Source: an uncultured Micavibrio sp. (lineage in GTDB: Bacteria; Pseudomonadota; Alphaproteobacteria; Micavibrionales; Micavibrionaceae). From it: a stretch of 38,939 nt of DNA. The stretch lies in the NCBI GenBank assembly GCA_963973475.1, contig CAXBAL010000001.1, positions 1 to 38,939 of the forward strand. Direction: 5' to 3'. The notes below the pieces were generated by a model. The model did not search any database. It saw only the letters and a list, made by a program, of their open reading frames with translations, and was not told where the DNA came from. This document shows positions 2,354-29,196 of this stretch, in pieces. The translations under genes were made by a program, and so were the position numbers. The first letter of the stretch is position 1, and the number at the start of each line of letters is the position of its first letter.

Positions 2354-2978
2354 ATGACTGCGCCTCCTGAAAATCGTAGGCAGGCAAAATTTCTTTAATA
2401 TTCACGCCATATTTTTTAGATAAATATACAATTTTACTTCCGACCTGATTGTGCATCTGAATTGAATTCTGATCTGAAAGTATGTCCATCTCTTTGAGCA
2501 TTCTAAACAAGACCTGTCTGATCTTCTTCTGTGTGCTCGGAGATAATTTGTCTAATTCCTCATTCCACTGAGATTTTGCATTATAGAAGCGATCATAGTC
2601 GTCATAAGTTATGGAGTAGTCCAAAGCATGAATTTTGTCGCTCACAATCTCCCGCATAAAATCAGCAATAAATTGATAAGTTTTACAAATGCAAAGCCAC
2701 AGAGCTTGTTTTTGTTCTGCGGAGGATACCAAATCTCTAATTAATTCTAGATCGGAATCATCCACCCAAGATAGTCTTAGCTCTATTTCTCTAATAAGCC
2801 TTTTACCACTACTTTGTGTGCGGACGGCCAATATATTAGCGCTGCTGACAGCCTCTTTTACCTTAGACCAATCATTTGATTGAAGATAATATTTAATGAC
2901 TGATACGCTTTCCGCGTGGAGAATGGCTCCAGCAGTAAAAGAAAGATTGTATTTTTTTGCACCCTCTACTTTTTGCAT
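2346..2978 (-). CDS. brxA: BREX protein BrxA (DUF1819 family)
   Basis: 210 aa ORF with a DUF1819-like pattern (YNLSFTAGAIL..ES, SGKRLIREIELRL, ICKTYQFIADFMREIV). It is the first BREX core gene in the brxA-brxB-brxC order. Confidence 0.85.
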   Translation of the reverse strand: MQKVEGAKKYNLSFTAGAILHAESVSVIKYYLQSNDWSKVKEAVSSANILAVRTQSSGKRLIREIELRLSWVDDSDLELIRDLVSSAEQKQALWLCICKTYQFIADFMREIVSDKIHALDYSITYDDYDRFYNAKSQWNEELDKLSPSTQKKIRQVLFRMLKEMDILSDQNSIQMHNQVGSKIVYLSKKYGVNIKEILPAYDFQEAQSYA

Positions 2979-3145
2979 TTTGCCTGTTCTTCAATCCACG
3001 TATCGATTTCACTTTTTCTAAAGCGCCAGCTCCCACCAACTTTAAAGCCTGGTATTTCACCTTTGGCCGCTAGGCGATAGGCCGTTTTCTCATTCAGCTT
3101 GAGATACTCTGAAAGTTCTTTGACTGTAAAAATGTCGGTATTCAC
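2966..3145 (-). CDS. small excisionase-family (HTH_17-like) DNA-binding protein leading the BREX operon
   Basis: The core sequence is FTVKELSEYLKLNEKTAYRLAAKGEIPGFKVGGSWRFRKSEIDTWI. The track ORF extends to 3208 (GTG), and an in-frame ATG lies at 3193. I prefer the GTG at 3145 because GGGGA lies about 7 nt upstream of it. The stop overlaps the brxA start by 13 nt. Confidence 0.6.
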   Translation of the reverse strand: MNTDIFTVKELSEYLKLNEKTAYRLAAKGEIPGFKVGGSWRFRKSEIDTWIEEQAKCKK

Positions 3146-6553: not shown

Positions 6554-7795
6554 ATGTCACATATCAAAAGACACGCACGACATAGACTTCTAAAGGCATT
6601 AAATGTCAGCCCTGTCGTGTTTTTAAATGGTCCGCGACAGGCTGGCAAGAGCACATTGGTACAATCCATTGCCAAGAAAGATTACCCAGCCGAATATGTG
6701 ACTTTTGATAGTACAACACAAATGGCTGCCGCCGCCAACTCTCCTGAGAGCTATTTGAAAGAGCGTAAAGGTGCCTTAATCATTGATGAAGTTCAGCTTG
6801 TTCCGGAGATTTTCAGAGCCTTAAAGGTTGTCGTGGATGAATTGAGACTGGAACAACCAAAACTCAAAGGGCGTTTTCTACTCACAGGGTCAGCCAATAT
6901 TATGGCCTTGCCGAAATTATCAGATCCTTTGGTTGGTCGCATGAGCGTTTTAACGCTCTATCCGTTGGCCGCTTCAGAAGCCTTGGCCGGCGACGGTAAT
7001 TTTATCGAAAGGCTCTTTAACAAAGAATTTGAGCCAGATTCTGCCAAATATAAACTGGCCGAGGTTATACGCCTAGCGACCTATCCGGAAATTTCAGGTT
7101 CAGAAAAACTTGAGCGCACAACCTGGTTTGATGGTTATCTGACCACTATTTTACAACGAGATGTCCGCGCTCTTGCTGAAATTGAAAAATTAAGCACGCT
7201 GCCTAATTTGCTTCGGATTTTGGCTAATCGCGCCGGCGGTTTGGTGAATGATGCGGATATCGCAAGGGATGCCGGTTTAAATCCTGTGACGTCCCGGAAT
7301 TACAAAACCTTGCTTAAAATGCTGTTCCTGACTTTCGAGCTGGCGCCCTGGTCGCGCAATATTGGAAAACGTCTTGTCAAATCCCCAAAAGGTTATATGA
7401 GCGATACTTTGCTCTTATGCCATCTCATGCAGTATGAGCTGAGCGATCTTGAACAAAACAGACCGGAGCTTTTTGGGCATGTTCTTGAGAACTTTGTTGC
7501 GACCGAACTTCTCAAGCTTATGACATTTCAAAATGAGAAGATGGATTTATACCATTTCAGAACCAGTGATAATAAGGAAGTTGATTTTGTCTTGGAAAAA
7601 TCTAACGGGCAATTAGCTGCAATCGAGGTTAAGCAGCGGGATAGCGTCTCAAAAGCTGATTTTAAAGGTCTGGAAGAGCTTCAGCGTTTAGCAGGTCATG
7701 ATTTCATATGCGGAATAGTCTTGTATCGCGGCCGTGATGTTGTTCCGTTCGGCCAAAATCTATGGGCAGTGCCTGTGAGCAATCTTTGGCTTTAA
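6554..7795 (+). CDS. AAA-family ATPase with DUF4143-type C-terminal domain
   Basis: 413 aa. Walker A: GPRQAGKST. Walker B: ALIIDEVQ. The C-terminal half is typical of AAA_14/DUF4143 proteins (FENFVATEL, EVDFVLE). Confidence 0.8.
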   Translation: MSHIKRHARHRLLKALNVSPVVFLNGPRQAGKSTLVQSIAKKDYPAEYVTFDSTTQMAAAANSPESYLKERKGALIIDEVQLVPEIFRALKVVVDELRLEQPKLKGRFLLTGSANIMALPKLSDPLVGRMSVLTLYPLAASEALAGDGNFIERLFNKEFEPDSAKYKLAEVIRLATYPEISGSEKLERTTWFDGYLTTILQRDVRALAEIEKLSTLPNLLRILANRAGGLVNDADIARDAGLNPVTSRNYKTLLKMLFLTFELAPWSRNIGKRLVKSPKGYMSDTLLLCHLMQYELSDLEQNRPELFGHVLENFVATELLKLMTFQNEKMDLYHFRTSDNKEVDFVLEKSNGQLAAIEVKQRDSVSKADFKGLEELQRLAGHDFICGIVLYRGRDVVPFGQNLWAVPVSNLWL

Positions 7796-8449: not shown

Positions 8450-8546
8450 TTTTATCACCTCAATATGTAAGATAATAATATATATTAATCTTACATTCAA
8501 TTAGTTAATAATCTATGTATAACAAGGGTTTTGATAGGTTTTAATT

Positions 8547-8743
8547 AGCCCCCTTCGGGCCGATTTAACAAGACCTTCGCTGACGCTCACCTTCGGCTGA
8601 CTTGCCGGTATCCCCACCTTTCCGCGGCTTCGCCTTGTGCAAGGCGGGTGATCCCCCTCCGGCAAGTCCGGATCATGGTTAAATCTCCCCCGCTTTTGTG
8701 CCGCTATGCGGCTCATAGGAAAGAAGTGCAACACGCACTTTTA
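8547..8743. promoter_or_regulatory. conserved nested-hairpin element, copy 1 (candidate ssDNA promoter/priming signal or structured leader)
   Basis: Near-identical to copy 3 over about 140 nt and to copy 2 in the core and tail. Outer helix: 8598-8607/8658-8667. Middle helix: 8612-8619/8640-8647. Apical helix: 8625-8627/8631-8633. It ends 25 nt before the ParB-like ATG. Confidence 0.6.
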
Positions 8744-8768: not shown

Positions 8769-10490
8769 ATGACTTACACAAAACTACCAATCACGAAAAT
8801 TCAGGTTTCGGATGCTAACCCTCGCAAAGCCTTCGATGAGGACTCAATTCTGGGCTTGGCTCAATCCATTAAAACGGACGGGTTGCTTCAAAATCTGATA
8901 GTCGGAAAAGCCAAAGGCAAAAAGAAACTACACCCTATTATCTGCGGTGAACGCCGTTTTCGGGCTATAAGCCATTTGGTTGAGAATGGTGATTTTCCCA
9001 AAGATTACGAGGTTACGGTTGAAATTAAAGACGACCTCGATGCCGATACAGCTTTGCGAATTGCCACAATGGAAAATATCCAGAGGCAAGATTTGACACC
9101 ATTGGAAGAAGCTCAAGCCCTTACCAAATTGGTTCAGGATGGCGAAAAACTCGATGATATTGTCGCGCAAACTGGTCTTAGCGCACACACTGTCAGACGC
9201 CGCCTTGTTCTCATGCAGTTAAGTGAGACCGTCAAAGAATGTCTTGAGACAGGTGAAATTACTCTCTCGCAGGCAGAAGCCTTGAGTATTGGGACTTTTG
9301 AGGAACAGGAACGCTGTCTCAACATGGCAAAATCAGGTTATTGGGATGCCGAGGATATCAAAGACCGTATTTTGGGCGATCTTCCGACCCTATCAATGGC
9401 TATTTTTGAGCGTGAGCTTTACACAGGTGACTATACAACCGACCTTTTAGGTGAGGACGATAACACCTATTTCAATGATGCAGAGCAATTCTTTGAACTG
9501 CAAAAGCAAGCGGCAGAAGAACTGGCAGAATCCTATCGTGAGAAGGCCGATTGGGTGGAATTTGTTGAGGGCTATTTCAGTGCTTGGCAGTATGGCCGCG
9601 CCGAAGAAGGTGAGACAGGAGGCGTTATTGTCTCGTTATCGGCAAGCGGTGCTATTGAAGTCCATGAAGGGCTTATCAAAACCAAGGCTGATGAAGATAC
9701 AGCAAATAGCCTTAAAGTGAAGCCTAAAGCCACCTACCCTACTCCGCTACGCCGTTATATGGCCATGCATAAAAGTATCGCGGTTCAATCGGCTTTGATT
9801 GAAAACCCAAGGGTTGCGAAACAGCTTGCTGTCGTAAACAAGCTATATCGCTTCAAAAACCATGATTGTCTGTCCTATTTCGAGCAGGAAGAGACAACCT
9901 CCCCTGCCCTCGCAATTATCAATGAACAGGCAAAGGCTTTATTGGCGCATTTCGGCCATGACTCCGAAGACGCTACATGGCGCGATTTGGGTTATCTTTT
10001 CAACTATGACCTAGAAGATGCCTATAAAGCTGTCAAAGACTTATCGGATGATGTTTTAGAAAGCCTTTTGGTGACACTGGATGCCTTGGAATTCGGGCAA
10101 TTATTCTGTGAACAGCTTGATACCTATGAGGGCAGTATCTTCAATCAGGTTGCTCAGGATTTGCGTGTTGATATGCGGAATTACTGGCGACCAGATGAAG
10201 CCTTTTTGAAACGCCGTAACAAGGTGCAATTACAGCAGATTGTTACCGATGCAGGGTGCTTTCAGAAATTCGGCAATGTTGCAGGATATAAGAAAAAAGA
10301 GCTTGTTACCTCTATGAGCAAGCATTTTCAGCATGTCCTTACTCTTGAAAGCCCGAATGAAGACGAGTTGAAAGCAACGTTCTGGATTCCAGAAGCTATG
10401 GCTTTCCCTGCGATTGACCCTGATGCCAAACAGGATGAGCTGGATACTATCGAAGAAGATAGTGCCGAGAACTTCAAAGAAGCCGCCTAA
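8769..10490 (+). CDS. ParB/Srx N-terminal-domain protein (large ParB-like leading-region protein)
   Basis: 573 aa. ParB N-domain motifs: ITKIQVSDANPRK, LLQNLIV, ICGERRFRA. An HTH follows (LDDIVAQTGLSAHTVRRRL), then a long C-terminal extension. Confidence 0.8.
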   Translation: MTYTKLPITKIQVSDANPRKAFDEDSILGLAQSIKTDGLLQNLIVGKAKGKKKLHPIICGERRFRAISHLVENGDFPKDYEVTVEIKDDLDADTALRIATMENIQRQDLTPLEEAQALTKLVQDGEKLDDIVAQTGLSAHTVRRRLVLMQLSETVKECLETGEITLSQAEALSIGTFEEQERCLNMAKSGYWDAEDIKDRILGDLPTLSMAIFERELYTGDYTTDLLGEDDNTYFNDAEQFFELQKQAAEELAESYREKADWVEFVEGYFSAWQYGRAEEGETGGVIVSLSASGAIEVHEGLIKTKADEDTANSLKVKPKATYPTPLRRYMAMHKSIAVQSALIENPRVAKQLAVVNKLYRFKNHDCLSYFEQEETTSPALAIINEQAKALLAHFGHDSEDATWRDLGYLFNYDLEDAYKAVKDLSDDVLESLLVTLDALEFGQLFCEQLDTYEGSIFNQVAQDLRVDMRNYWRPDEAFLKRRNKVQLQQIVTDAGCFQKFGNVAGYKKKELVTSMSKHFQHVLTLESPNEDELKATFWIPEAMAFPAIDPDAKQDELDTIEEDSAENFKEAA

Positions 10491-10503
10491 TTTCTCCGAA
10501 CTT

Positions 10504-10537
10504 GCCGCCCGATAATTCGGGCGGCTTTCTTTTTTTA
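10504..10537 (+). terminator. rho-independent terminator after the ParB-like gene
   Basis: The 8-bp GC stem GCCGCCCG/CGGGCGGC has a 6-nt loop and is followed by TTTCTTTTTTT. Confidence 0.7.
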
Positions 10538-10548
10538 AGGATATCCCC

Positions 10549-11208
10549 ATGAGTATTGACGAATTTACCAAAGAATTATTCAATCTAGACCGTTCCAAAT
10601 CAGCCTCAGAGAAATTCAGGGATTTTTGTGAACTGGCTTTTTGCGCCTATGCAAAGCTGACGGCTGCACCCGACCGCGCGGAAGCACTGGAAGAGCGTTA
10701 TATGAATATCGTTCAAACATACCATGACAAAGACACGGTTAGGGCATATCCCCGCCTAATGGCTATGGTCTGGCGCGGTGTGCAAGATGGACAGGACTTT
10801 CTCGGACAGGCCGCCGCCGAATTAAATGCGCTCGATGCCAAAACAGGACAGTTTTTCACACCAATGCCCGTGTCGAGAATGATGGCAATGATTGGATTAC
10901 AAGGCGCAGAGACTGCCATCAAAGAAAAAGGCTTTATTACCCTGAATGAGCCTGCATCGGGCGCAGGCGGGATGATATTAGCCGCCGCGAGCATCATAAA
11001 AGAAATGGGCTATGACCCCTCCTCCCATCTAATCGTGAGCGCACAGGACATTAGCCAGCTTGCTTATCAAATGTGCTTTTTGCAACTGACATTCGCAGGA
11101 ATACCCGCCTATCTGGAGCGTTGCAACAGCTTGTCTATGGAGTCTTTCGACGCTTCTTGGACGCCGGCCACGCTTGCCTTTTACAGGCAGCATGGCCGTC
11201 TTTTTTGA
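10549..11208 (+). CDS. truncated N6-adenine-methyltransferase-like protein (SAM-binding half only, no NPPY/F motif)
   Basis: 219 aa. It has GQFFTP (motif X-like) and LNEPASGAGGM (motif I), plus AQDIS..QMCFLQL (a GQE...N-like region). The protein ends about 25 aa later, and no (D/N/S)PP(Y/F/W) motif occurs anywhere in it. Confidence 0.6.
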   Translation: MSIDEFTKELFNLDRSKSASEKFRDFCELAFCAYAKLTAAPDRAEALEERYMNIVQTYHDKDTVRAYPRLMAMVWRGVQDGQDFLGQAAAELNALDAKTGQFFTPMPVSRMMAMIGLQGAETAIKEKGFITLNEPASGAGGMILAAASIIKEMGYDPSSHLIVSAQDISQLAYQMCFLQLTFAGIPAYLERCNSLSMESFDASWTPATLAFYRQHGRLF

Positions 11209-11224
11209 TCTTGGCTGTATCCGT

Positions 11225-11398
11225 CAAGACCTCCCTTCGGGCCGCTAAAGCGCACAAAAACGGTATCCCCGCCTTTCCGCGTCTTCGACTTGTGCAAGGC
11301 GGGTGATCCCCCTCCGTTTTTGTGGGTCGTGACTGCTCCAGCCGCTTCTTAAGCCGTTTCACGGCACTTCTAGGAAAGAAGTGCAACACACATTTTAA
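11225..11398. promoter_or_regulatory. conserved nested-hairpin element, copy 2
   Basis: Outer helix: 11253-11263/11314-11324 (11 bp, perfect). Middle helix: 11268-11275/11296-11303. Apical helix: 11281-11283/11287-11289. It ends 12 nt before the ardC ATG. Confidence 0.6.
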
Positions 11399-11410
11399 GG
11401 AGAAAAGAAG

Positions 11411-12283
11411 ATGAAACGCACCGATATTTACCAATCCGTTACTGACACAATCATTGAAGCCTTGGAGCAAGGTTTATCAGGTGACTTTGAATTGCCTTGG
11501 CATGGTTGTGGAGGTGTTCCCCAGAACGCCCGCACAGGAAACTATTATCACGGTATCAATGTGCCTTTGCTATGGGCGCACCAGATGAAAAGCGCCTATT
11601 CAAGCGGAACATGGGCAACTTATAAACAATGGCAGGATATGGGCGCACAGGTAAAAAAGGGCGAGAAAGGCCGCCAGATTGTTTTTTGGAAATCCATAGA
11701 AGTCGAGCCAACCGAAGACAATGAACAGCGCGAGCAAATTATGTTTGCCAAATATTCAACTGTCTTTAATGCCGATCAGGTTGATGGATATACCCTGCCC
11801 CAAGATGATTTTGAGCCGAATGATATACAGGCTATTTCTGCGGCAGACCAGCTCATTGACGCTTCAGGCGCAGATATTCGCTTTGATGAGCGCCGCGCAT
11901 ATTACAGCGTCATGGATGATTATATCAATCTACCAAGCCCTGAATTTTTCAGACATACCTGCGGCTCTACAGCTACGCAGAATTACTACAGCACTGCATT
12001 TCACGAGCTTGTTCACTGGACAGGCGCGGAAAAACGCCTGAACCGTGAGCAGAAGCATAGATTTGCTTCAAAAGACTATGCTTTCGAGGAATTGGTCGCA
12101 GAACTTGGCGCCGCCATGCTTTGTGCATCTACAGGCGTAGAGTCAAGCCCCAGAGAAGACCACGCCATTTATATACAAAACTGGCTGAAAGCCTTGAAGG
12201 ACGACAAGAAGTTTATCTTTTCGGCCAGCTCACAGGCACAAAAAGCCGCTGATTATCTCTTTTCTTTCACCAATCAAGATTAA
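11411..12283 (+). CDS. ardC: antirestriction protein ArdC (ssDNA-binding N-domain plus HExxH metalloprotease domain)
   Basis: 290 aa. ArdC N-domain pattern: WHG...PQNARTGNYYHGINVPLLW...WATYKQW. The C-domain has FHELVHWTG and AFEELVAELGAAML. Confidence 0.9.
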   Translation: MKRTDIYQSVTDTIIEALEQGLSGDFELPWHGCGGVPQNARTGNYYHGINVPLLWAHQMKSAYSSGTWATYKQWQDMGAQVKKGEKGRQIVFWKSIEVEPTEDNEQREQIMFAKYSTVFNADQVDGYTLPQDDFEPNDIQAISAADQLIDASGADIRFDERRAYYSVMDDYINLPSPEFFRHTCGSTATQNYYSTAFHELVHWTGAEKRLNREQKHRFASKDYAFEELVAELGAAMLCASTGVESSPREDHAIYIQNWLKALKDDKKFIFSASSQAQKAADYLFSFTNQD

Positions 12284-12295
12284 CCCAAGATAAAA

Positions 12296-12316
12296 GGCAG
12301 GGGAAAGCCCCCTGCC
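12296..12316 (+). terminator. hairpin after ardC (weak terminator)
   Basis: GGCAGGGG-AAAGC-CCCCTGCC. The downstream T tract is poor (CCTTTA). Confidence 0.4.
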
Positions 12317-12336
12317 CCTTTAATGAGGAGCAAATT

Positions 12337-12510
12337 ATGACTTATCTCGTATTCATTGACACGCAATCAGGCGAAAAAACGCATTCCATTTGGAACAACT
12401 GCGAAGACTGTAAGCATCAAGTGGATGTTCTGAACAGCGCAGGCTATTGCGCTTGGTGGGAATTCATACCCGCCGCGCTGAATGCCCCGAATGGCCAATA
12501 TCTTGTCTAA
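12337..12510 (+). CDS. small hypothetical protein (57 aa), below ORF-track length cutoff
   Basis: My translation: MTYLVFIDTQSGEKTHSIWNNCEDCKHQVDVLNSAGYCAWWEFIPAALNAPNGQYLV. A GAGGAG Shine-Dalgarno lies 7 nt upstream of the ATG. Confidence 0.4.
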   Translation: MTYLVFIDTQSGEKTHSIWNNCEDCKHQVDVLNSAGYCAWWEFIPAALNAPNGQYLV

Positions 12511-12547
12511 GCCCCCTACTCTCAATTTTTAAAAAAAGGAATACACT

Positions 12548-12973
12548 ATGCAACAAGCACAAACACTTACATGGGATGAAACTGAGATTGCTAATGCCTA
12601 CGCGGCTGAATTTTTAGCCGCCGAGATAGCCGAGACGGAAGACGAAGCCTTCTCTATGGCAATATCGGATACGCAAGTCATAGAATGGGAATTCGAAGAT
12701 TTTAAGGAACAGCTTAAAACCATTCTTGACGATATTTCGCCCGAAGGCTTTTTCTATGTAGAAGGCCGGAATATGGGCTGGAGACGATTATCAGGCCATG
12801 CGGAGATAAAAGCAGATAGTGCAGAATCCTATATTGAAAAAGCCTTCCCTAAAACATCGGAATGGACGTTTCGAGGCGTTTACACCCCTTCCAAAAAGTC
12901 TTTGGATTATACGCTTTATCACCATGACGCGCCTACTGGAGAGTTTTATACTGTCATTGCAAATTCGGCATAA
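12548..12973 (+). CDS. strongly acidic hypothetical protein (141 aa)
   Basis: An AAGGAA Shine-Dalgarno is present. By my count there are roughly 27 D/E versus 11 K/R. I recognise no family. Confidence 0.6.
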   Translation: MQQAQTLTWDETEIANAYAAEFLAAEIAETEDEAFSMAISDTQVIEWEFEDFKEQLKTILDDISPEGFFYVEGRNMGWRRLSGHAEIKADSAESYIEKAFPKTSEWTFRGVYTPSKKSLDYTLYHHDAPTGEFYTVIANSA

Positions 12974-12984
12974 GGCGTGAAAAG

Positions 12985-13240
12985 GAGTAAGTAGGATTTT
13001 CTTTACCTCTGCATATATAAAAGAGTAAGTACGGAAGTAAAGATTTAGCGAAAATAACACAACGGTAAAACCCTACTTACACTTGTTGGTATTTCACTAA
13101 GACGGTAAGACCTTACTTCTCTAAATCATCAGAAAGGTACTTTACGAAGATGGTAAGTCACTATATACTCTAAATGGTAAGTCATTAACTCTTCACGAGA
13201 ACACCTGCCGACTTACCGTCAAGAATAAGTCACTACTTCA
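12985..13240. repeat. centromere/operator-like array of GTAAG/CTTAC-containing repeats upstream of parA
   Basis: GGTAA(A/G)NC copies occur at 13064, 13104, 13152 and 13176. An inverted GACTTACC lies at 13211-13218. GAGTAAGTA occurs at 12986 and 13023, and ATAAGTCACTACTTC at 13225. Confidence 0.55.
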
Positions 13241-13263
13241 CACCTTTGTTCAAGGAGCTAAAA

Positions 13264-13947
13264 ATGTCATATATTATCGCTATATCCAGCTCAAAAGGCG
13301 GCCCTGGCAAAACCAATACTGTTGCCAACCTCGCCGATTATTGGGCTTTAAAGGGTAAGAAAGTCGCCATGCTCGACTCTGACCCGAACAAAAATCTTTC
13401 CAAATGGTACAATAAGAAAGCCTTCGATGACGCTTTTGCAGGGGTAAGCTTGCAAACCTTAGAGGATGAAGAGCAGATTATCGATGCTGCGGAAGCGGCC
13501 GCGCAGGAACACGACATTGTTTTGATTGATGTAGCCGGTGTGCGGAGTAGGGCGCTTTTATATGCGGCCGGTATTGCCGATCTGGTAATTGTTCCTGCGC
13601 AGCCTTCCGAAGATGATATTGATGAAGCTATCAATACAATCGAGGCTGTTAAAAGTGCAGGGAAGCTTGCCAAGCGCGATATTAAATACCGCGTCCTGTT
13701 GTCTCAAACACGCAAAGGCACGATTGTTTTGGAACACGCCGCCAAGCAGTTTGAGGAAATCAATAATATCAAAATCTTCCGCACGACTATCGGACAACGC
13801 GAAGCCCATAAACAGGCGCGTTTCTACGGTACTACCGTCATGCGCACAGAACCTAAAAGTCCTGCTGCTGAAGACTTTGCAAATCTGGGCAAGGAAATCG
13901 ATAAAGTTTTGAAAGAGGAAGCCAAGCTGCAAAAACAAGCGGCATAA
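13264..13947 (+). CDS. parA: ParA/Soj-type partition ATPase (small, type Ib-like)
   Basis: Deviant Walker A SSSKGGPGKTN. Also DSDPN and LIDVAG. The ATG at 13264 is preceded by AAGGAG. The track ORF starts at a TTG at 13246. Confidence 0.9.
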   Translation: MSYIIAISSSKGGPGKTNTVANLADYWALKGKKVAMLDSDPNKNLSKWYNKKAFDDAFAGVSLQTLEDEEQIIDAAEAAAQEHDIVLIDVAGVRSRALLYAAGIADLVIVPAQPSEDDIDEAINTIEAVKSAGKLAKRDIKYRVLLSQTRKGTIVLEHAAKQFEEINNIKIFRTTIGQREAHKQARFYGTTVMRTEPKSPAAEDFANLGKEIDKVLKEEAKLQKQAA

Positions 13948-13948
13948 G

Positions 13949-13978
13949 TAGAGAAGTCTTTACTTCTGTACTTCTCTA
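13949..13978. repeat. 9-bp inverted repeat TAGAGAAGT/ACTTCTCTA between parA and the ParG-like gene
   Basis: The arms are at 13949-13957 and 13970-13978. The loop contains TACTTC, the same word as in the upstream array. Confidence 0.4.
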
Positions 13979-14004
13979 TTTAATCATTTATGAAAGGGAC
14001 TATC

Positions 14005-14310
14005 ATGGCAAAACCAAGTTTAAAGAATCTTCCGAATGTCGGCACGGAAAACCGTAACGCGGACGAGCTGAAAAAGCGCTTATCAGAAGGGGCAAAGGAT
14101 TATCCAAGCCTGAAAGTGGAAAAAAAGAAGGATGCGACCAAGAAGCGCAAGAAATCCTCTTTATCCATGCCGGAATATGTTTGGGATCTTCTATGGGATG
14201 CGACCAAAGAGAGTAGGGAACCCCAAGGTGTTATCGTAATGCGCGGTTTAAAAGCTTTGGGCTTTGAAATTGATGAAGCCGATCTGGTAGATGCCCGTAA
14301 GACCCGCTAG
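14005..14310 (+). CDS. small basic protein with C-terminal RHH-like fold (ParG-like centromere-binding candidate)
   Basis: It lies immediately after parA. It has a lysine-rich linker and then SLSMPEYVWDLLWDATKESREPQGVIVMRGLKALG. The ATG at 14005 is preceded by GAAAGGGA. Confidence 0.55.
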   Translation: MAKPSLKNLPNVGTENRNADELKKRLSEGAKDYPSLKVEKKKDATKKRKKSSLSMPEYVWDLLWDATKESREPQGVIVMRGLKALGFEIDEADLVDARKTR

Positions 14311-14508
14311 GGTCAGGGCGTTCCCTTGTGCTTTGACAAGCCCAAGGTCAGGCTCTATTCACTAACCAGCCCCAAGCGGCCGAGGCCACTTCGGGCTGCT
14401 AAGTTCACCGAACCTCGGTTGCCCGAGTTTCGGCCCATACGGGTAACGATCCCTAACGCGATCATGGCAAGGCCATTCCTGATAGGAATGGTCATTTGTA
14501 TTTAAAGA

Positions 14509-14700
14509 GGCCGCTTCGGCCCGATTATCAAGACCTTCGCTGACGCTCACCTTCGGCTGCCTTGCCGGTATCCCCACCTTTCCGCGTCTTCGACTTGTGC
14601 AAGGTGGGTGATCCCCCTCCAGCAAGGCCGGGTCATGACAATCTCCTCCCGCTTCAAGCGACAGATTCCTGTCGCCTCGAAAAAAGTATGTTTCGAGGCG
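14509..14700. promoter_or_regulatory. conserved nested-hairpin element, copy 3
   Basis: Outer helix: 14559-14568/14619-14628. Middle helix: 14573-14580/14601-14608. Apical helix: 14586-14588/14592-14594. Two small hairpins follow at 14658-14675 and 14673-14700. It ends 26 nt before the DUF6876 ATG. Confidence 0.6.
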
Positions 14701-14726
14701 CAATTTAAAAGGAAAAGGAGTTCGCT

Positions 14727-15128
14727 ATGACAGACCAACAAACACAATCACTTAACGGCAACCAACGCAACAAGCTGCGCGAGCAGGATTTAGCCAATTT
14801 TTACGGCACAGAAGTCTGGTACAGACACCCCGCTTTTAGAACCTATCTTTATACTGAAGGCGTGCAATATGTTGCAGAACATGGTGAAGCCTATTGGCTT
14901 TTGGATAAAATTTTTGCCTGTCATGCCAGTGTCCCAAAATTATCAGGTGAGGATTTTTGTAGTTGGGAGCTGAATAAGAATGCAGAAGGGCATGGCGCCA
15001 GGCTTATTTGCACAGATGGCAATTATAACGAGCTGTATTCTGAGAGCATTCTCTACACTGATTTTCCGCTTACCAGCATCAAGTTCTATTGTGTGAATAA
15101 TGTCTTGTTGCTCCCCACAGAATATTAA
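14727..15128 (+). CDS. DUF6876-like leading-region protein
   Basis: Pattern: FYGTEVWYRHPAF...YTEGVQYVAEHGEAYWLLDKI...YTDFPL...LLLPTEY. A GGAG Shine-Dalgarno is present. Confidence 0.65.
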   Translation: MTDQQTQSLNGNQRNKLREQDLANFYGTEVWYRHPAFRTYLYTEGVQYVAEHGEAYWLLDKIFACHASVPKLSGEDFCSWELNKNAEGHGARLICTDGNYNELYSESILYTDFPLTSIKFYCVNNVLLLPTEY

Positions 15129-15142
15129 GGGGAGGGCAGGAT

Positions 15143-16084
15143 ATGACACAGCTTGATTATTCAAAATTCAAAACAGAGATAAACTTGACCCAGTATGCCG
15201 CGCATCTAGGCTATGAGATAGACCGTAAGAAAAGCACACGCTCATCCATAGCCATGCGAAAAGACAGCGATAAAGTTATAATTTCAAGGCGTGGCAATCT
15301 TTGGGTTTATTTTTCGGTCACAGACGATAGCGACAACGGCACTATTATCGACTTTGCCGAGAAGCGCACTCATAAAAGCATTGGCGAAATTGGGCGCGAC
15401 CTGCAAAACTGGATTGGCGGCGGCGTCTCACTGCCTCATGCAAAAAGCTATGTGCGAGAGGTTGCCCCTCAAGAATATGACCCCGCACGTATTGCTGGAA
15501 TTTTTAAAGCCTTAAAACCCGTCAATAAACACCGTTATTTGGCCAGCAGAGGGCTTACAGATGCCCTTTTGACAGAAAGACGGTTTGCAGGGCGCGTTTT
15601 TACAGACCGCTATCAGAACGCCGCATTTCCGCATTTTAAGGATGGTCAGGTTTGCGGGCTTGAATTGAAAAACCACGATAAAGCACTTTTTGTCAGGGGA
15701 AGCGAAAAAACTCTTTGGCGCTCATATGTTTTCAAGGATGACAATACACTGATTTTGGCAGAAGCCGTGATAGATGCATTGAGTTACCATGCGCTATATC
15801 ATAGGGAAAAAGCTGTCTATGCTGCTACAGGGGGTGGGTTATCGCCAGAGCAGGGAGAAATTATTACGGCTTTCATCTGCGATTTTGAAGCTCTGGAACA
15901 CATTATCATTATTCCCGACCATGACCAAGGCGGCGAAAAGTTTGAAAAGCGCATCCGTGAAGCCATCGAGTTATCGAGCTTTAACGGATTGTGTGAAACG
16001 CACAGGCCATGCCTAGAAGGGCAGGACTGGAACGATGTTTATAAGGACACACCCGAAAAAACTGGAAAAATTATGCATATATGA
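15143..16084 (+). CDS. DUF3991/Toprim-domain protein (primase-like conjugative protein)
   Basis: 313 aa. The Toprim acidic motifs are LILAEAVIDALS and IIIPDHDQGGEKF. A GGGGAGG Shine-Dalgarno is present. Confidence 0.75.
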   Translation: MTQLDYSKFKTEINLTQYAAHLGYEIDRKKSTRSSIAMRKDSDKVIISRRGNLWVYFSVTDDSDNGTIIDFAEKRTHKSIGEIGRDLQNWIGGGVSLPHAKSYVREVAPQEYDPARIAGIFKALKPVNKHRYLASRGLTDALLTERRFAGRVFTDRYQNAAFPHFKDGQVCGLELKNHDKALFVRGSEKTLWRSYVFKDDNTLILAEAVIDALSYHALYHREKAVYAATGGGLSPEQGEIITAFICDFEALEHIIIIPDHDQGGEKFEKRIREAIELSSFNGLCETHRPCLEGQDWNDVYKDTPEKTGKIMHI

Positions 16085-16133
16085 TACAATTATTGTATTA
16101 TTTATGCTTTAAAACTGTTTTATGGAGGTAAAA

Positions 16134-16394
16134 ATGCCCAATATTGATTTAGGTGATCCGTATGAATCTTACGTCAAAGGTTTAATTGGATCAGGATTAT
16201 ACAGCACTTATGCCGAAGTGGTTAAGGATGCTTTACGCCTTCACATGAATAATGAAACACCTTCAAAACAAATGGCTTTTATTCATAGCGCTATTTTGGA
16301 AGGAGAAGCCGATATTCAAGCCGGTCGCACGAAAAAATATTCGCCCAAGATGCTGGATAGTATGACAGAGGACGTTTTAAAAGAAGATGTCTGA
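16134..16394 (+). CDS. parD: ParD-family type II antitoxin
   Basis: Sequence: NIDLGDPYESYVKGLIGSGLYSTYAEVVKDALRLH. The ATG at 16134 is preceded by GGAGG. It overlaps the toxin gene by 8 nt. Confidence 0.75.
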   Translation: MPNIDLGDPYESYVKGLIGSGLYSTYAEVVKDALRLHMNNETPSKQMAFIHSAILEGEADIQAGRTKKYSPKMLDSMTEDVLKEDV

Positions 16395-16695
16395 AAACTA
16401 CCAAATTCAATTTTCCGCGCGCGCAGAAAAAGATTTCAAATCTATTCAGCGATACACGCTCAAGACCTATGGTGAAAAGCAGGTCTGGATTTATACAGGG
16501 ATGCTGAAAGAAGCTTTACGAAAACTCGAAGAAAACCCGAAATTATATGGTCATATGCGCCCTGATATTCCACAGATCTATCGCGCTTACAAAATTGGCG
16601 AACACAGCCTGATTTATCGTATCGAAGACCGAACTGTTTATTTAATTGCTATATTACATGGTAGCATGGATTTTACCTCTCAACTCAAAACCTAG
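16387..16695 (+). CDS. parE: ParE/RelE-family type II toxin
   Basis: 102 aa. It is a typical ParE (A..D...I..Y ... YR.Y..G.H.I.YRIED..V.I..ILH) and is translationally coupled to parD. Confidence 0.75.
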   Translation: MSENYQIQFSARAEKDFKSIQRYTLKTYGEKQVWIYTGMLKEALRKLEENPKLYGHMRPDIPQIYRAYKIGEHSLIYRIEDRTVYLIAILHGSMDFTSQLKT

Positions 16696-16810
16696 ATTTA
16701 CAGTGTTGCAATAATGCTGACGATTTCCTTTTTTTGGAAATTATCGACCAAACAGCCTTATGCCTTTCAAGATTGGGCAATTTAACTGACCTGCCTTCGC
16801 CTATGCTTCA

Positions 16811-16868
16811 AGAATAAATTTCCCCTTTTCGCGTTCGCTCAAATTCCTCGCGGGAGCAAATTTATTCT
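16811..16868. repeat. 11-bp perfect inverted repeat AGAATAAATTT / AAATTTATTCT with 36-nt GC-rich spacer
   Basis: The arms are at 16811-16821 and 16858-16868. The palindromes GACGCGTC and GCCGGC follow. It sits in the intergenic region between parE and the DUF736 gene. Confidence 0.35.
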
Positions 16869-16959
16869 GTGACGCGTCGAAGCCGGCCAGTGAATTTTAT
16901 GCCATCGTAAAAGGGCAATATGGTGTTGCTTTGGTGATAATCAAGAAAAGGAAAATACA

Positions 16960-17265
16960 ATGTCAATTATAGCAAATATGAAAAAACAAGAGAATGGAAG
17001 TTTTGAAGGAAAACTGAAAACAGCAACCTTGAATCTTCATCTCAAATTACAGCCTATCGGTGATGCTGAAGCGAATGATAACAAGCCTGATTTCAGAGCC
17101 AAAATCGGAAGCTTCGAAGCAGGTGCAGGGTGGAATAAGATTAGCGATAATCAAAATCCCTACATTTCCGTTCAGATTGATGCGCCGGAATTCCCAAATC
17201 CGATTTACGCCAATCTGGTTCAAAAAGACGACCAGTATATTTTGATCTGGTCACGCCAAAACTAA
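16960..17265 (+). CDS. DUF736-family protein
   Basis: Pattern: ENGSFEGKLKT..L......PDFRA....FEAGAGWNK......PYISVQIDAPEFPNPIYANL...LIWSR. Confidence 0.8.
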   Translation: MSIIANMKKQENGSFEGKLKTATLNLHLKLQPIGDAEANDNKPDFRAKIGSFEAGAGWNKISDNQNPYISVQIDAPEFPNPIYANLVQKDDQYILIWSRQN

Positions 17266-17273
17266 CTCACTTT

Positions 17274-17300
17274 AGCCCCTCGCAAAGAGGGGCTTTTTCT
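17274..17300 (+). terminator. rho-independent terminator after the DUF736 gene
   Basis: AGCCCCTC-GCAAA-GAGGGGCT followed by TTTTCT. Confidence 0.75.
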
Positions 17301-17375
17301 TGTTCGAAATGCGCTCTTATCGGAAATGATGAGGGCGATTTTTGTGCTTTGAATCAACCACTATGCAGACCAGTA

Positions 17376-17404
17376 GATAGGGCATGTAGAGAGCGGATAG
17401 GGCA
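17376..17404 (+). promoter_or_regulatory. direct repeats GATAGGGCA x2, 20 bp apart (candidate accessory-protein binding sites near oriT)
   Basis: The copies are at 17376-17384 and 17396-17404, in the AT-rich region upstream of the relaxase gene. Confidence 0.3.
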
Positions 17405-17523
17405 GTATAAAATGTGACAGTGAAGTGCGTTTGGTAGATATTAGATTAATACAAGATAAAAGATATAAATTATATTTATACGAACTTATTGTTATTATTG
17501 TGTAATTTACACGTTTATAAGTC

Positions 17524-17552
17524 TTGTAATAAGGTAAAATAAATTGTATATT
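17524..17552 (+). promoter_or_regulatory. sigma70-like promoter TTGTAA-17 nt-TATATT upstream of the relaxase gene
   Basis: The hexamers are at 17524-17529 and 17547-17552. Confidence 0.4.
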
Positions 17553-17583
17553 AGGAGGGTGTAAAATTGCGTTTTTCACGTGA

Positions 17584-19656
17584 ATGAGAAAAGAAGAATT
17601 GATGTTTTTAGATCGGATCAGGGCTGAGAATTTTACGGGGAGCGATGGCGTTTCCCGGCCATTGATCGTGACCAGAGATAGCCCCAGAAAAGCGTTCTTT
17701 AAAAAGCTCAATCGTCATGGTGAGGTAAAGTCAGGACCGAAAAAAATCAAACGCAGATCGGGACTGATGCGCGGCAATTCATTTGCAGGTTTGGCATCGG
17801 CGCAGCGCGTTGTTGTGAAAATCAATCCGGTGAAGAACAAGACTAAGGGGGTTGGATCGGGCGCAAATTCCGGCGGCCAAAATCTCTATCATCACATCCA
17901 TTACATTAGCCGAAACAGGGCAGGTGAGGATGCTGAAAAAGCCATCCTGTTTGATGCTAAAAACGAGGGATTGGAGCGTCAAGATTTTTTCGAGTTATGC
18001 AAAAATGATCGTCACCATTTTCGGATGATCATCTCGCCGGAGCGGGGCAATGAGATCGAAGATTTTAGAGGCTATGTTCGGGAAGTGATGAAGCGTGCCC
18101 AAGGGGATCTCAAGACCAAACTCTCATGGGTGGCGGCTGTTCATTATGATACTGATGATGTTCATGCGCATGTGATCATTCGGGGCAAAGATGCGCGCGG
18201 TGAGGATCTGGTGATGGCTCGCGATTATATCGCATTTGGCATTCGCGCAAGAGCGCAAGAGATTGCAACCGAGTTATTGGGCGAGCGCTCAATCGAAGAC
18301 ATTCAAAAAGGATTGGAGAAGGAAGTGGACGCGCTGCGGGTCACTTCTTTAGACCGCTTTATTGAAAAGCAGGTTGGCGAAGATCAGGTGGTCGATGTCC
18401 GCAAAGACAATAATTTCGGTAAATCGGCGCATTATGAGTCTGTCCTGAAAGGGCGGTTGCGCTATCTGGCCTCAAGCGGCATGGCGGTCGAGAACCCTCC
18501 GGGGGTCTATACACTGAAAGAAGGGTATAGAGATGTCCTGGCCAGTATTGCCACGCGCAATGATGTGATTAAAAAGCTTTATGAGCGCGTAGAGGGCTTG
18601 GATGATCTTGAAGTCTATTCTCTAAAAGCCGGAGAGGGGCAGGTTATTGAAGGGCGCGTTTTGGATAAAGGGCCAGCCGATGAGCTTACAGACAAGAAAT
18701 ACATTGTTGTTGAAGCTCTCTCTGGCGGAAAGCATTACGTTCCAGTTGGAGAAGCCTTTAATTATGATGAGGTGAATAAGCGCGGCCTCGTGCGTGTTCG
18801 CCCATTCGATCATTCAACCGGTAAGGCCGATCACAATATCGCGCTGATAGCAGCCCAGAATGAGGGTATTTACGATATTGAGAAGCACCGCGCCTATATC
18901 GCTAAGGAACAGTCTTACATCGATGAGGACGTTCGAGAGCCTTACTTACAATCCCATATCAAACGGATTGAGACGCTTGTGCAAAATGAAGCGGCTACAG
19001 AATTAGGGCAGGGGCGTTATCAAATCCCTGATGATGTGATCGAAAAGGGCAAAGAGATCTCTGCCAAAATCAATGCGCGTGAGAAAAAGCGGTTCTATCC
19101 AAAGCTTGATATTCTTTCATCCCATGCACCGGAAGATATGGTGGATGCGAAAAAGAAGACCTGGCTGGATAAAGAGCTTTATAAGAGAAGCAAGGGAGAT
19201 CGCAGTATCACCGATCAATCTTTAGAAGCTGCGCTTCAAAAACGTCAGCAATGGCTTGTCGATAACAAACTGGCAATGATCCAGTCTAATGGTGAGTTTG
19301 CCATGAAGAAATCAGCAATGCGCGATCTCAGCGTCATGGAAGTTCATGAAGAGGGTAAATTCCTGGCCACAAAAGCCGGTCTTACCTTTAACGATCATAA
19401 AGTCTCATCCGATCAGGCTTATACTTATCTTGGTTATACCGAACTTGAAACAGGAAAATGGGCGGTTGCGATGCGCGGGAAAGAGCTGCAAATGGCGCGG
19501 ATTGATAAAGCCCCCGATCTTGAAAAAGGACAAAAGGTTCAATTTAATGAAATCGAGCGCGGACTATTCGAAATGCGCGCCGCCGAACAACAAAAACAGC
19601 AAGACAGGCAGCAATCATCACGCGGGCGTGATGATGATAATGAAATGGAGCTATAA
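17584..19656 (+). CDS. conjugative relaxase (VirD2/MobP-like nuclease domain with DUF3363-type C-terminal region)
   Basis: 690 aa. It has RVVVKINPV, HHIHYISRNRAGED, DRHHFRMIISPE and the histidine triad HYDTDDVHAHVII. An alternative start lies at ATG 17602 (MFLDRIR). Confidence 0.85.
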   Translation: MRKEELMFLDRIRAENFTGSDGVSRPLIVTRDSPRKAFFKKLNRHGEVKSGPKKIKRRSGLMRGNSFAGLASAQRVVVKINPVKNKTKGVGSGANSGGQNLYHHIHYISRNRAGEDAEKAILFDAKNEGLERQDFFELCKNDRHHFRMIISPERGNEIEDFRGYVREVMKRAQGDLKTKLSWVAAVHYDTDDVHAHVIIRGKDARGEDLVMARDYIAFGIRARAQEIATELLGERSIEDIQKGLEKEVDALRVTSLDRFIEKQVGEDQVVDVRKDNNFGKSAHYESVLKGRLRYLASSGMAVENPPGVYTLKEGYRDVLASIATRNDVIKKLYERVEGLDDLEVYSLKAGEGQVIEGRVLDKGPADELTDKKYIVVEALSGGKHYVPVGEAFNYDEVNKRGLVRVRPFDHSTGKADHNIALIAAQNEGIYDIEKHRAYIAKEQSYIDEDVREPYLQSHIKRIETLVQNEAATELGQGRYQIPDDVIEKGKEISAKINAREKKRFYPKLDILSSHAPEDMVDAKKKTWLDKELYKRSKGDRSITDQSLEAALQKRQQWLVDNKLAMIQSNGEFAMKKSAMRDLSVMEVHEEGKFLATKAGLTFNDHKVSSDQAYTYLGYTELETGKWAVAMRGKELQMARIDKAPDLEKGQKVQFNEIERGLFEMRAAEQQKQQDRQQSSRGRDDDNEMEL

Positions 19657-19658
19657 AC

Positions 19659-20078
19659 ATGGCCAAAACCAAACGGGTACAAAAGACAGTTTATTTTGAT
19701 GCGGAAGTCTGGGAAGCATTGGAAAAGCAGATGAAAGTCTCTCATAATCCCAATGTCTCTGCGATTGTGAATGATGGTTTACGCTATGCGATGTTTCCTG
19801 AACATCGTAATGACCGCGATGCTGATCTTGTGAAGCTCTATAACCAGTTTTCAGCGTCTTTGGCGATGCACCGGAAGAAAACAGCGCGTGATCTGGCCTT
19901 CATGCAAGAGCTGATCTTGAAATTTAGCCATGAGTTTTTTATGCACCATCCTTCCATTCCAGAAGACAGTAAAGCTCCGCGAGAAGCGGAGGCCAATGCA
20001 CGGCTTGATGCCTTCATGGAAAATATTGTGCGCAATATGTCTGAATTAAAGCCCCTATCGGATCGTGAAGAGGTCTAA
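19659..20078 (+). CDS. ribbon-helix-helix-like protein (candidate relaxosome accessory factor)
   Basis: The N-terminus KRVQKTVYFDAEVWEALEKQM...SAIVNDGLRYAM fits a beta-alpha-alpha RHH fold. The gene starts 2 nt after the relaxase stop. Confidence 0.5.
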   Translation: MAKTKRVQKTVYFDAEVWEALEKQMKVSHNPNVSAIVNDGLRYAMFPEHRNDRDADLVKLYNQFSASLAMHRKKTARDLAFMQELILKFSHEFFMHHPSIPEDSKAPREAEANARLDAFMENIVRNMSELKPLSDREEV

Positions 20079-28188: not shown

Positions 28189-29196
28189 CTAAAATCCTCT
28201 GATATTTTTGGCAGCTGTCGTCACGCGCGCGCCCATAGCTTTTCCTGTTTGAACGGGATGGCGGGCAATGTTGTAGCCCATTACGCCGGCCCGGAATGAG
28301 CCTTTGGGCGTTCCTTTGCCAAAGCGCGATGCTAATCGTGATGTCCATGCTGCCGATCCCATTGTTGATAGGGATAGACCGCCCGTGACCGATGCCGCCA
28401 TGTTCATAACCTGCATGAGCAGAAGAACCGAGACGATTGAGACAAAGAAGAACGGGCCGATATAAGAAAGGGTCTGTGCATCTCCACTTGAATTATTTTC
28501 AAGATTTTGAAGAGGTGGCTCTGCAATCGTTAAGAGCAAGGCGAGCAGGGCATAGACGAATATTGGTATGATGGCATAATTGAGTAGTGTGCGCAGCCAG
28601 CCTTCAAACAAATTGCGCGTATTGGCAAAAATCAAAAGCAATATAAAGAGCGGTCCGATTGAAAGCAGAATAGCGACAGCAATCTTAGCCAAGATAATCA
28701 GCATGGCGGCATAGCCGGTGAGTGCCAAAGCCCCAAACCAGATCACTGCGGCATGGAAGTATTTCCCTAAATCCGACCAGCCAGCCCCTTCCAAAATATC
28801 GCTGACAATATCCATAGCCCTGTCATAAAACTGGGAGAGGATGGTGTTTGCGGATGTATCGTCAGTTGCGACCGCATTCGGTGTTGCATTAGCCGCGCCT
28901 GTCATGATTTGGCCGGCCACATCGGACGGCAGATCAGTCGCCATATTATAAACAAGAAGGAAGAACGTATCCCACTCGGTTGCGATTAAGAGGAGAACGA
29001 TAATCTTTAATGTATTTACGATTAAATCCGTTGCAGCAAAACGGCCGGAAATAATGACTTTATAGCCAAAAACAGCAATAAAGATGATGAACATCAATCG
29101 CCAGAGAAGCTGAACAGTCGGCGTTAGGCTTCCAAACGCACCTTGGACGAATGCGAGAATGACACTATCAATATTGTTGATGAGAGCCTCGATCAT
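28189..29196 (-). CDS. virB6: T4SS inner-membrane protein VirB6/TrbL
   Basis: Polytopic membrane protein in the VirB6 position. I prefer the ATG at 29196, which gives an ATGA overlap with the upstream lipoprotein gene. The track ORF starts at 29214. Confidence 0.8.
   Translation of the reverse strand: MIEALINNIDSVILAFVQGAFGSLTPTVQLLWRLMFIIFIAVFGYKVIISGRFAATDLIVNTLKIIVLLLIATEWDTFFLLVYNMATDLPSDVAGQIMTGAANATPNAVATDDTSANTILSQFYDRAMDIVSDILEGAGWSDLGKYFHAAVIWFGALALTGYAAMLIILAKIAVAILLSIGPLFILLLIFANTRNLFEGWLRTLLNYAIIPIFVYALLALLLTIAEPPLQNLENNSSGDAQTLSYIGPFFFVSIVSVLLLMQVMNMAASVTGGLSLSTMGSAAWTSRLASRFGKGTPKGSFRAGVMGYNIARHPVQTGKAMGARVTTAAKNIRGF

Follow-up and report, generated by a model that had tools for sequence, protein, structure and literature searches.

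A strand-specific structured repeat upstream of anti-restriction-type genes on alphaproteobacterial conjugative elements: a candidate single-stranded DNA early-expression cassette

The 38,939-nt stretch of an uncultured Micavibrio sp. analyzed here (contig CAXBAL010000001.1; hereafter the window) carries, in front of a gene encoding a DUF6876 protein and of two other genes, a structured repeat that belongs to a widespread family on alphaproteobacterial conjugative plasmids and integrative and conjugative elements (ICEs). The nested helices of the repeat, termed P0, P1 and P2, are a real structure, and the folded strand is antisense to the downstream genes. We put the chances at about even that the repeat represents a new class of single-stranded DNA (ssDNA) promoter or early-expression cassette on the transferred strand (T-strand), which would make it an analogue of the Frpo promoters by function and not their homologue. 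Early anti-defence expression from the incoming single strand has, to our knowledge, been demonstrated only for the enterobacterial F and IncI1 plasmids. If the reading is correct, the repeat would be a candidate for how alphaproteobacterial elements achieve zygotic induction, would allow leading regions and the polarity of transfer to be recognized by sequence in ICEs without a known origin of transfer (oriT), and would flag DUF6876, DUF3768, DUF932, DUF4942 and DUF6878 as likely establishment or anti-defence factors.

Several features favor this reading. The hairpin covaries on the template strand and has invariant loops, DNA-type triloops and an enriched GC content. It occurs in multiple copies with leading-region polarity and keeps a fixed spacing to the starts of anti-restriction-type genes. 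In the three intergenic regions that hold the copies, no sigma-70-like duplex promoter is predicted, a sigma-70 consensus scan having given no hit on either strand; copy 3 also has a terminator-like hairpin ahead of it. The element appears to be new, as literature searches by sequence strings and by topic returned no description of it, and Rfam gave no match at the gathering score over the whole window, nor, for the elements in 10000-20000, at E <= 10.

Structure, folding strand and range of the family

Within the window, a covariance model built from 43 diverse minus-strand cores finds exactly three copies of the repeat, each scoring 86-87 bits on the minus strand (Table 1); on the plus strand, copies 1 and 3 give no match at E <= 10 and copy 2 alone is hit, at 7.8 bits. 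A core of about 55 nt recurs at 8606-8660, 11261-11315 and 14566-14620, and the 54-nt core pattern matches three times in the window versus 0.00 times expected from shuffles. The copies form islands of about 60% GC in a window of 44.6% GC, resembling in this respect the ssDNA promoters of F, which are reported to be GC-rich (PMC13478746). The first-pass annotation had described copy 3, the one before the DUF6876 gene, as a nested hairpin nearly identical to copy 1, and both points hold: a repeat search gives 91% identity across 120 nt (8558-8677 versus 14518-14637), and the structure is supported at the family level by covariation. Its account of the pairing stands as well. The middle helix P2 of copy 3 is fully Watson-Crick, with an A-T pair at the position that is G-C in copy 2 and, in copy 1, A.C on the plus strand and G.T on the minus strand. 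In the outer helix P1, C14566 faces A14621 on the plus strand, a mismatch that becomes a T.G wobble when the minus strand is read, and P0 of copy 3 contains one A.C on the plus strand that likewise reads G.T on the minus strand. Both 3' hairpins claimed for copy 3 are present in the predicted ssDNA fold, and such hairpins do differ in sequence among the copies while keeping their positions. The P1 sequence of copy 2 (CACAAAAAC/GTTTTTGTG) is entirely unlike that of copies 1 and 3.

Read 5' to 3' on the minus strand, the family consists of P1, an internal loop with AGGGGGATCA opposite GANA, P2, TGCAC(AAG), a variable apical hairpin, (CGC)GGAA, P2' and P1'; P1 comprises 10-12 bp closed by an invariant GG/CC, P2 comprises 8 bp, and P0 encloses both. 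In the 43-sequence alignment, 91.3% of P1/P2 cells are paired versus 68.6% in shuffles, double changes occur in 13 of 20 pairs, and the covariation score is 0.586 versus 0.167, with every slid control far lower. RNAalifold recovered P1 and P2 independently, and all eight variable P1 pairs that it predicts show double changes; it further adds T26-A80 and C27-G79, which leaves AGGGGGA unpaired. Across the family, P2 is paired in 98% of its cells, including pair 32:75 (GU 23, GC 14 and AU 4 on the minus strand), and pairing at the apical stem pair 44:63 is kept through double changes in seven sequences. P0 also covaries (CAAGGG/CCCTTG versus CCAGGG/CCCTGG, as well as GGTGCAAGGG/CCCTTGCGCC). The internal loops are conserved in sequence: the long strand is invariant in 43 of 43 seed sequences, owing in part to the search pattern, and kept in seven of the eight divergent copies found by the model alone, and in the GANA strand the G and the first A are invariant, the second A is conserved in at least 90% and N varies.

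The apex ranges from 20 to 57 nt across the family. A C-GNA-G apex is frequent among 47 short-class apical inserts, as in GCGAAGC, GCGCAGC and GTCGAAGAC, a reading of our own in which the register is ambiguous. C(GNA)G triloops, as in the d(GCGAAGC) of Hirao et al., are reportedly a hallmark of exceptionally stable DNA mini-hairpins. In copies of a Brevundimonas class (L008, L029, L052, L076, L104, L108, L119 and others), an insert of about 30 nt, richer in AT, takes the place of the apical mini-hairpin, shows triplet periodicity (ATG/ATC/GTC) and would encode short hydrophobic or acidic peptides; a small open reading frame (ORF) there was rejected, as the frames vary among copies and no Shine-Dalgarno (SD) sequence is present.

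The suggestion of the first-pass annotation that the minus strand is the folded one extends to the whole family. In P1 and P2 together, 48 cells are G.T on the minus strand and 12 are A.C, six of the latter falling at the edge of P1 (its two outermost pairs, 7:94 and 8:93), where pairing is poor; pair 32:75 is most often G.T. Folding with DNA parameters favors the minus strand in 98 of 107 unique cores, by a mean of 2.8 kcal/mol. The pentamer CGAAG occurs 11 times on the minus strand and never on the plus strand within the three window elements, and is balanced elsewhere in the window (29 and 34, respectively). The folded molecule is probably DNA rather than RNA.

The distribution of the family was surveyed with an exact-pattern scan of one genome per species, and the family counts cover the matches listed. 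At least 119 contigs, mostly from Alphaproteobacteria, match the exact pattern, and many of them are chromosomal and therefore ICE-like; the family as a whole comprises more than 140 copies on about 120 mostly alphaproteobacterial contigs. The left arm TCCCCnnnnTTCCG lies 20-57 nt upstream in 125 of the 136 pattern instances among the matches listed, which therefore constitute one family with a variable apex. The covariance model returned 117 and 31 matches in the fetched loci, with eight divergent copies that the pattern had missed. By blastn against plasmids, the core was found in Sphingobium, Sphingomonas, Methylobacterium, Tritonibacter and Tardibacter plasmids, in up to four places per record. 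In addition, contigs assigned to Thiothrix, Nitrosospira, Desulfocurvus, Dokdonia, Cerasicoccus and Acidobacteria (L040, L049, L051, L077, L041 and L045) contain good copies, reflecting either the spread of these conjugative elements outside the Alphaproteobacteria or binning contamination of metagenome-assembled genomes.

Downstream genes and transfer polarity

The repeat stands at a nearly constant distance from the gene that follows it, whichever of many unrelated gene families that gene belongs to. Measured from the end of the model to the first SD-preceded start codon of an ORF with 60 aa or more, which 97 of the 104 unique copies have, the distance has a median of 84 nt, an interquartile range of 81-86 and a 5-95% range of 71-94. 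The leader in between keeps its architecture while its sequence changes, running from a C-rich box through a short and a longer hairpin to an A-rich stretch and the SD. Taking as the downstream ORF the longest one that starts downstream on the gene-sense strand, a Pfam scan of 109 ORFs identified HTH_ParB (47), ParB_N (19), ArdcN (13), ArdA (6), DUF932 (6), DUF3768 (4) and DUF6876 (3), along with DUF4942, DUF2958, DUF6878, a methylase and PcfJ. The ParB-HTH, ArdC, ArdA, DUF932, DUF3768 and DUF6876 genes are of kinds typical of leading regions or of anti-restriction. Related elements thus carry the repeat 5' of DUF6876 homologues too, as in L064, and the association drawn from copy 3 by the first-pass annotation recurs outside the window.

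The window is an alphaproteobacterial-type conjugative replicon encoding RepC, TraG, TrbE and a DUF3363 relaxase, and the genes behind all three copies point toward the relaxase gene. Taking the window together with pDE2, NZ_CP047222 and pHSL1, 12 of 13 copies precede the relaxase operon and share its direction, a layout shared by the leading region of R388. Copies within any one locus have the same orientation, the exception being the fourth copy of pDE2. The relaxase gene is usually located in the lagging region by oriT and is the last to enter, and the T-strand is the template for early genes (PMC11541004). From this general rule and from the position and direction of the copies, the folded strand is predicted to be the T-strand. 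The junction at which the fourth pDE2 copy lies is also present in a Methylobacterium plasmid (L002), next to IS21.

Candidate functions and comparison with known systems

Under the early-expression reading, the minus strand would fold after transfer into a long irregular hairpin, P0-P1-P2, with sequence-invariant internal loops. The folded hairpin could recruit the transcription machinery of the recipient, and may also stall or prime complementary-strand synthesis, and the gene starting about 85 nt further on would be expressed before the plasmid turns double-stranded. The genes served in this way would be the ParB-like/methylase, ArdC and DUF6876-primase genes in the window and ArdA, DUF932 and DUF3768 genes elsewhere, with transcription as the presumable output of the element. 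We offer a narrower version more tentatively, and consider it possible but on balance doubtful: the repeat would be a new ssDNA promoter class that recruits alphaproteobacterial RNA polymerase or a co-transferred factor through the AGGGGGA loop, with no -35/-10 mimic, and would form a portable cassette of hairpin, 85-nt leader and SD placed 5' of the first-needed anti-defence gene. If recognition truly proceeds without -35/-10 boxes, it would constitute a new way of starting transcription on folded ssDNA.

Several observations weigh against early expression from the T-strand. Neither the scan nor manual inspection reconstituted a -35/-10 pair in either arm or in any geometry, and the CTTG box in P0, the only -35-like one, covaries as an ordinary helix. 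The apparent invariance of the core motifs is partly an effect of ascertainment, because TGCACAAG and GATCCCCCTCC were the search pattern with which the family was fished. A duplex promoter predicted at 8452-8479, upstream of copy 1, could read through. One of the 13 copies (pDE2 28347-28432; L122 11348-11433) is on the opposite strand beyond the relaxase operon, just past its 3' end and 86 nt 5' of an 87-aa gene that is convergent with the relaxase gene. Finally, the equation of the minus strand with the T-strand depends on the usual relaxase rule.

Known signals were also sought in the sequence and discarded. A CTTGAC-like -35 box in P0 (CTTGNC) was rejected, as it covaries as a plain helix and reads CTGG in one class. 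The GANACC loop strand was considered as a pre-melted mimic of the Caulobacter GCTANAWC box and dropped, as its G and A are paired to the facing TC in the RNAalifold prediction. A DnaA box in GTATCCCCA/TGATCCCCC fails on the free third position of the left motif, an RP4-type nick site (CCTG/C) in CCTGCAC fails on the window copies, which read CTTGCAC, and sigma-54 and sigma-32 readings of the leader have wrong spacings. An attC-like reading prompted by ATTTAAC...GTTAAAT in copy 1 was abandoned, as the other copies are without it.

The Frpo/ssi elements of F and IncI1 (classes 1-3, Frpo1/2 and ssp2) and the present element are both GC-rich, long, imperfect intergenic hairpins with several copies per plasmid, and both lie 5' of anti-restriction, ssb or methylase operons with the T-strand as template, presumably being active before conversion to double-stranded DNA (PMC11541004, PMC12672017, PMC13478746). 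The leading-region position 5' of early genes is shared (12 of 13 copies, with the T-strand assigned by the relaxase rule), as is a long imperfect hairpin specific to the T-strand, to judge from covariation, wobbles and core stability, but the -35/-10 boxes in the stem at a spacing of 16-18 bp are not found in the element. Its hairpin is also much shorter (about 120-135 nt including P0) and has invariant purine-rich internal loops, and its hosts are Alphaproteobacteria. A blastn search at word size 11 with 14509-14726 against 5,426 complete E. coli genomes with their plasmids, including F and IncI, detected no similarity to Frpo/ssi. Leading-region genes of pESBL driven by ssDNA promoters are barely induced in S. 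meliloti, an alphaproteobacterium (PMC12672017).

Besides driving early genes, Frpo elements yield RNAs that prime DNA synthesis, and ssp2 of F is a replication roadblock (PMC12672017, PMC13478746). The repeat might be a T-strand DNA-processing signal only, with no promoter activity: either a single-strand initiation site at which host DnaG/PriA or the element's own Toprim primase starts, or a roadblock slowing the synthesis of the complementary strand. Strand, context and multiple copies would fit equally well, the lack of -35/-10 boxes would be expected, and a Toprim/DUF3991 gene is present in the copy-3 operon. Such a signal, however, needs neither the fixed distance to an SD-preceded start nor the conserved leader architecture, and we regard it as unlikely, if less so than the alternatives that follow. 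Like the element, the single-strand origins ssoA and ssoU of rolling-circle plasmids are orientation-specific folded ssDNA hairpins with conserved unpaired blocks; the origins are recognized by the host RNA polymerase, the ssoU type being important after conjugative mobilization. They make a short primer RNA for lagging-strand synthesis and keep no fixed distance to a start codon, and the element does not appear to carry their RSB and CS-6 motifs.

A folded minus-strand RNA, transcribed against the leader of each gene and acting as a cis-antisense regulator of its translation or stability in the manner of FinP or CopA, seems improbable. The minus-strand wobbles would suit RNA equally well, the fixed position relative to the ribosome-binding site (RBS) would suit a regulator of the leader, and the pDE2 copy on the "wrong" strand would pose no problem. 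However, no promoter-like site on the minus strand is predicted downstream of any of the three copies, and no consistent terminator follows the element. In addition, the apical loops are triloops or long variable inserts rather than conserved kissing loops, the invariant internal loops suggest a common factor rather than antisense pairing, and no Rfam family is matched.

To the same low degree we credit a riboregulator in the 5' untranslated region of the plus-strand mRNA, in which C-rich tracts such as CCCCCUCC and CUCCCCC would act as anti-SD sequences masking the RBS. These tracts are complementary to GGAGG, SD and start codon stand at a fixed distance, RNA of the plus strand likewise folds stably (z = -3.0), and copies 1 and 2 probably lie within longer mRNAs. 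Against this, two neighboring pairs of P2 become C.A mismatches in the plus sense, one of them in 23 and the other in 10 of the 43 sequences, the plus strand is less stable than the minus strand in 98 of 107 cores, and the leader hairpins show no plus-strand preference, being more stable in the plus sense in 9 cases versus 22.

Least probable is a duplex promoter/operator cassette bound by an element-encoded repressor, as in the CUP repeats and ArdK of the IncN plasmid pKM101, which share the gross layout of a conserved repeat 5' of several leading-region genes according to PMC6289460 (citing Delver and Belogurov 1997) and would agree with the invariant sequence blocks and with a second motif shared with the ArdK-encoding IncW plasmid R388, but which would not account for compensatory changes that keep helices while their sequences change fully (e.g., P1 of copy 2) or for strand-asymmetric wobbles that are meaningless for a duplex site, and IncN plasmids showed no BLAST similarity. 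CUP repeats are repeated conserved cassettes 5' of several leading-region or anti-restriction genes (PMC6289460), a repetition matched by the element with three copies in the window and up to four per plasmid; they are described as duplex ArdK-binding promoter regions, whereas the element has covarying helices and strand-specific wobbles. No similarity to CUP/ArdK operators was detected, a plasmid BLAST of 14311-14726 returning only alphaproteobacterial plasmids; the IncW similarity lies in the second motif (14427-14459) and not in the main repeat. No ArdK-like domain was found among 20 window ORFs in a scan that was not exhaustive.

The attC sites of integrons and the element are both folded single strands of variable sequence and conserved structure that lie between genes and have a strand preference tied to conjugative ssDNA. 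In contrast to attC, which ends single-gene promoterless cassettes, the core of about 55 nt shows sequence conservation of about 85%, successive copies are separated by units of 2-5 genes, and the position of the element is tied to where the downstream gene starts instead of where the upstream gene ends. No integron integrase was found among the 20 ORFs scanned.

Upstream stretch, leader modules and other features

The stretch 14311-14508, upstream of copy 3, is strongly structured and hairpin-rich (ssDNA fold z = -6.9). The first-pass annotation had raised the possibility of a degenerate fourth copy here, which is not supported: the model gives only 8.7 bits (E = 3) on a generic hairpin at 14362-14403. 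Its other proposal, a separate element, fared better, since a distinct conserved motif lies there (Table 1), with the shared form GCTCTATTC...CACCGAACC-loop-GGTTTCGG CCCATNCGGG TAACGATCCCTNACGC. The partial 5' module that had been likened to copy 2 does share a pattern with it, but is not a truncated copy and belongs to this different conserved element. It includes a 17-mer at 14387-14403 in one hairpin of the second motif, and the shared pattern CTTCGGGCNGCTAA (13 specified bases) occurs within the window only at this 17-mer and in copy 2, with a chance expectation of about 0.001 by our own estimate; the sharing may reflect common mini-hairpin modules.

Homologues of the second motif were found in L064, L059, L057 and L088 and, in two copies each, in IncW plasmids such as R388 and in an A. 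larrymoorei plasmid. The copies of R388 lie in long intergenic regions 5' of ardC and of the next operon, and in the window and L088 the motif stands directly upstream of a copy of the main element, with which it may cooperate. It is absent from Rfam, and literature searches brought up no account of it. The terminator-like hairpin lies next, setting the par-like operon and the second motif apart from copy 3; in the corresponding hairpin of L064, one stem change produces A.C on the plus strand, which is G.T on the minus strand.

Table 1. Coordinates of the repeat copies, the parts of copy 3 and neighboring features (window positions unless another locus is named)
Feature	Position	Strand	Description
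Copy 1 core	8591-8676	-	87.1 bits; 5' of the ParB-like 573-aa gene
Copy 2 core	11246-11331	-	87.3 bits; 5' of ardC
Copy 3 core	14551-14636	-	86.4 bits, E ~1e-19; helices P1/P2, conserved internal loops, apical mini-hairpin
Small GC hairpin beside copy 3	14509-14521	-	GGCCGCTTCGGCC; predicted in both folds
P0 basal helix, left arm	14523-14534	-	GATTATCAAGAC; pairs with 14632-14643; predicted ssDNA fold
P1 left arm (plus coordinates)	14559-14568	-	Pairs with 14619-14628; includes C14566/A14621
Internal loop, short opposite strand	14569-14572	-	TATC on plus, GANA on minus, N free
P2 left arm	14573-14580	-	CCCACCTT; pairs with 14601-14608
Apical region	14581-14600	-	Conserved flanks TTCCGCG / CTTGTGC and variable mini-hairpin
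Apical mini-hairpin	14586-14594	-	GTC-TTC-GAC on plus; GTC-GAA-GAC on minus, C(GNA)G triloop
P2 right arm	14601-14608	-	AAGGTGGG; family pair counts
Internal loop, long conserved strand	14609-14618	-	TGATCCCCCT on plus, AGGGGGATCA on minus; large, asymmetric
P1 right arm	14619-14628	-	Sequence and family covariation
P0 basal helix, right arm	14632-14643	-	GTCATGACAATC; predicted ssDNA fold
Leader of copy 3	14644-14726	-	C-rich box CTCCTCCC, two hairpins, SD, start codon
Leader hairpins of copy 3	14658-14675; 14673-14700		GCGACAG/CTGTCGC; CGCCTCGAAA/TTTCGAGGCG
SD and start codon of DUF6876 gene	14715-14720; 14727		AAGGAG; ATG
Second structured motif	14320-14463		GGGCGT...GCTCTATTC...hairpin...CACCGAACC-loop-GGTTTCGG CCCATACGGG TAACGATCCCTAACGC
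Second motif elsewhere	L126 (R388) ~2880-3040, ~6890-7040; L125 5066-5250, 5883-6070; L088 1304-1470
Terminator-like hairpin and T-run	14471-14503	+	GGCCATTCCTGATAGGAATGGTC; hairpin 14471-14493; between second motif and copy 3
ParB-like gene, 573 aa	8769-10490	+	Pfam ParB_N, HTH_ParB; behind copy 1
ardC	11411-12283	+	Pfam ArdcN, MPTase-PolyVal; behind copy 2
DUF6876 gene	14727-15128	+	Pfam; behind copy 3
Toprim/DUF3991 gene	15143-16084		Pfam; after the DUF6876 gene, followed by parDE
DUF3363 relaxase gene	17584-19656	+	Genes behind all three copies point toward it

The small GC hairpin beside copy 3 has an equivalent at the same place in other classes of the family. In the leaders, a 26-nt block, TAGGAAAGAAGTGCAACACGCACTTT, is common to copies 1 and 2 (8716-8741 and 11371-11396; 92% identity), where it lies just 5' of the SD; it is absent from copy 3 and recurs in L059. 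From this distribution, leader modules have apparently been swapped separately from the core.

In two Sphingomonadaceae plasmids (L123 37137-38966 and 41092-42957; L124 3519-5348), reverse transcriptase/maturase genes of group II introns are inserted in or beside ardC and split the ArdC/zincin ORFs. In the window, a perfect 11-bp inverted repeat, AGAATAAATTT / AAATTTATTCT, lies at 16811-16821 / 16859-16869 between parE and a DUF736 gene, upstream of the relaxase gene, and is a candidate oriT repeat or operator.

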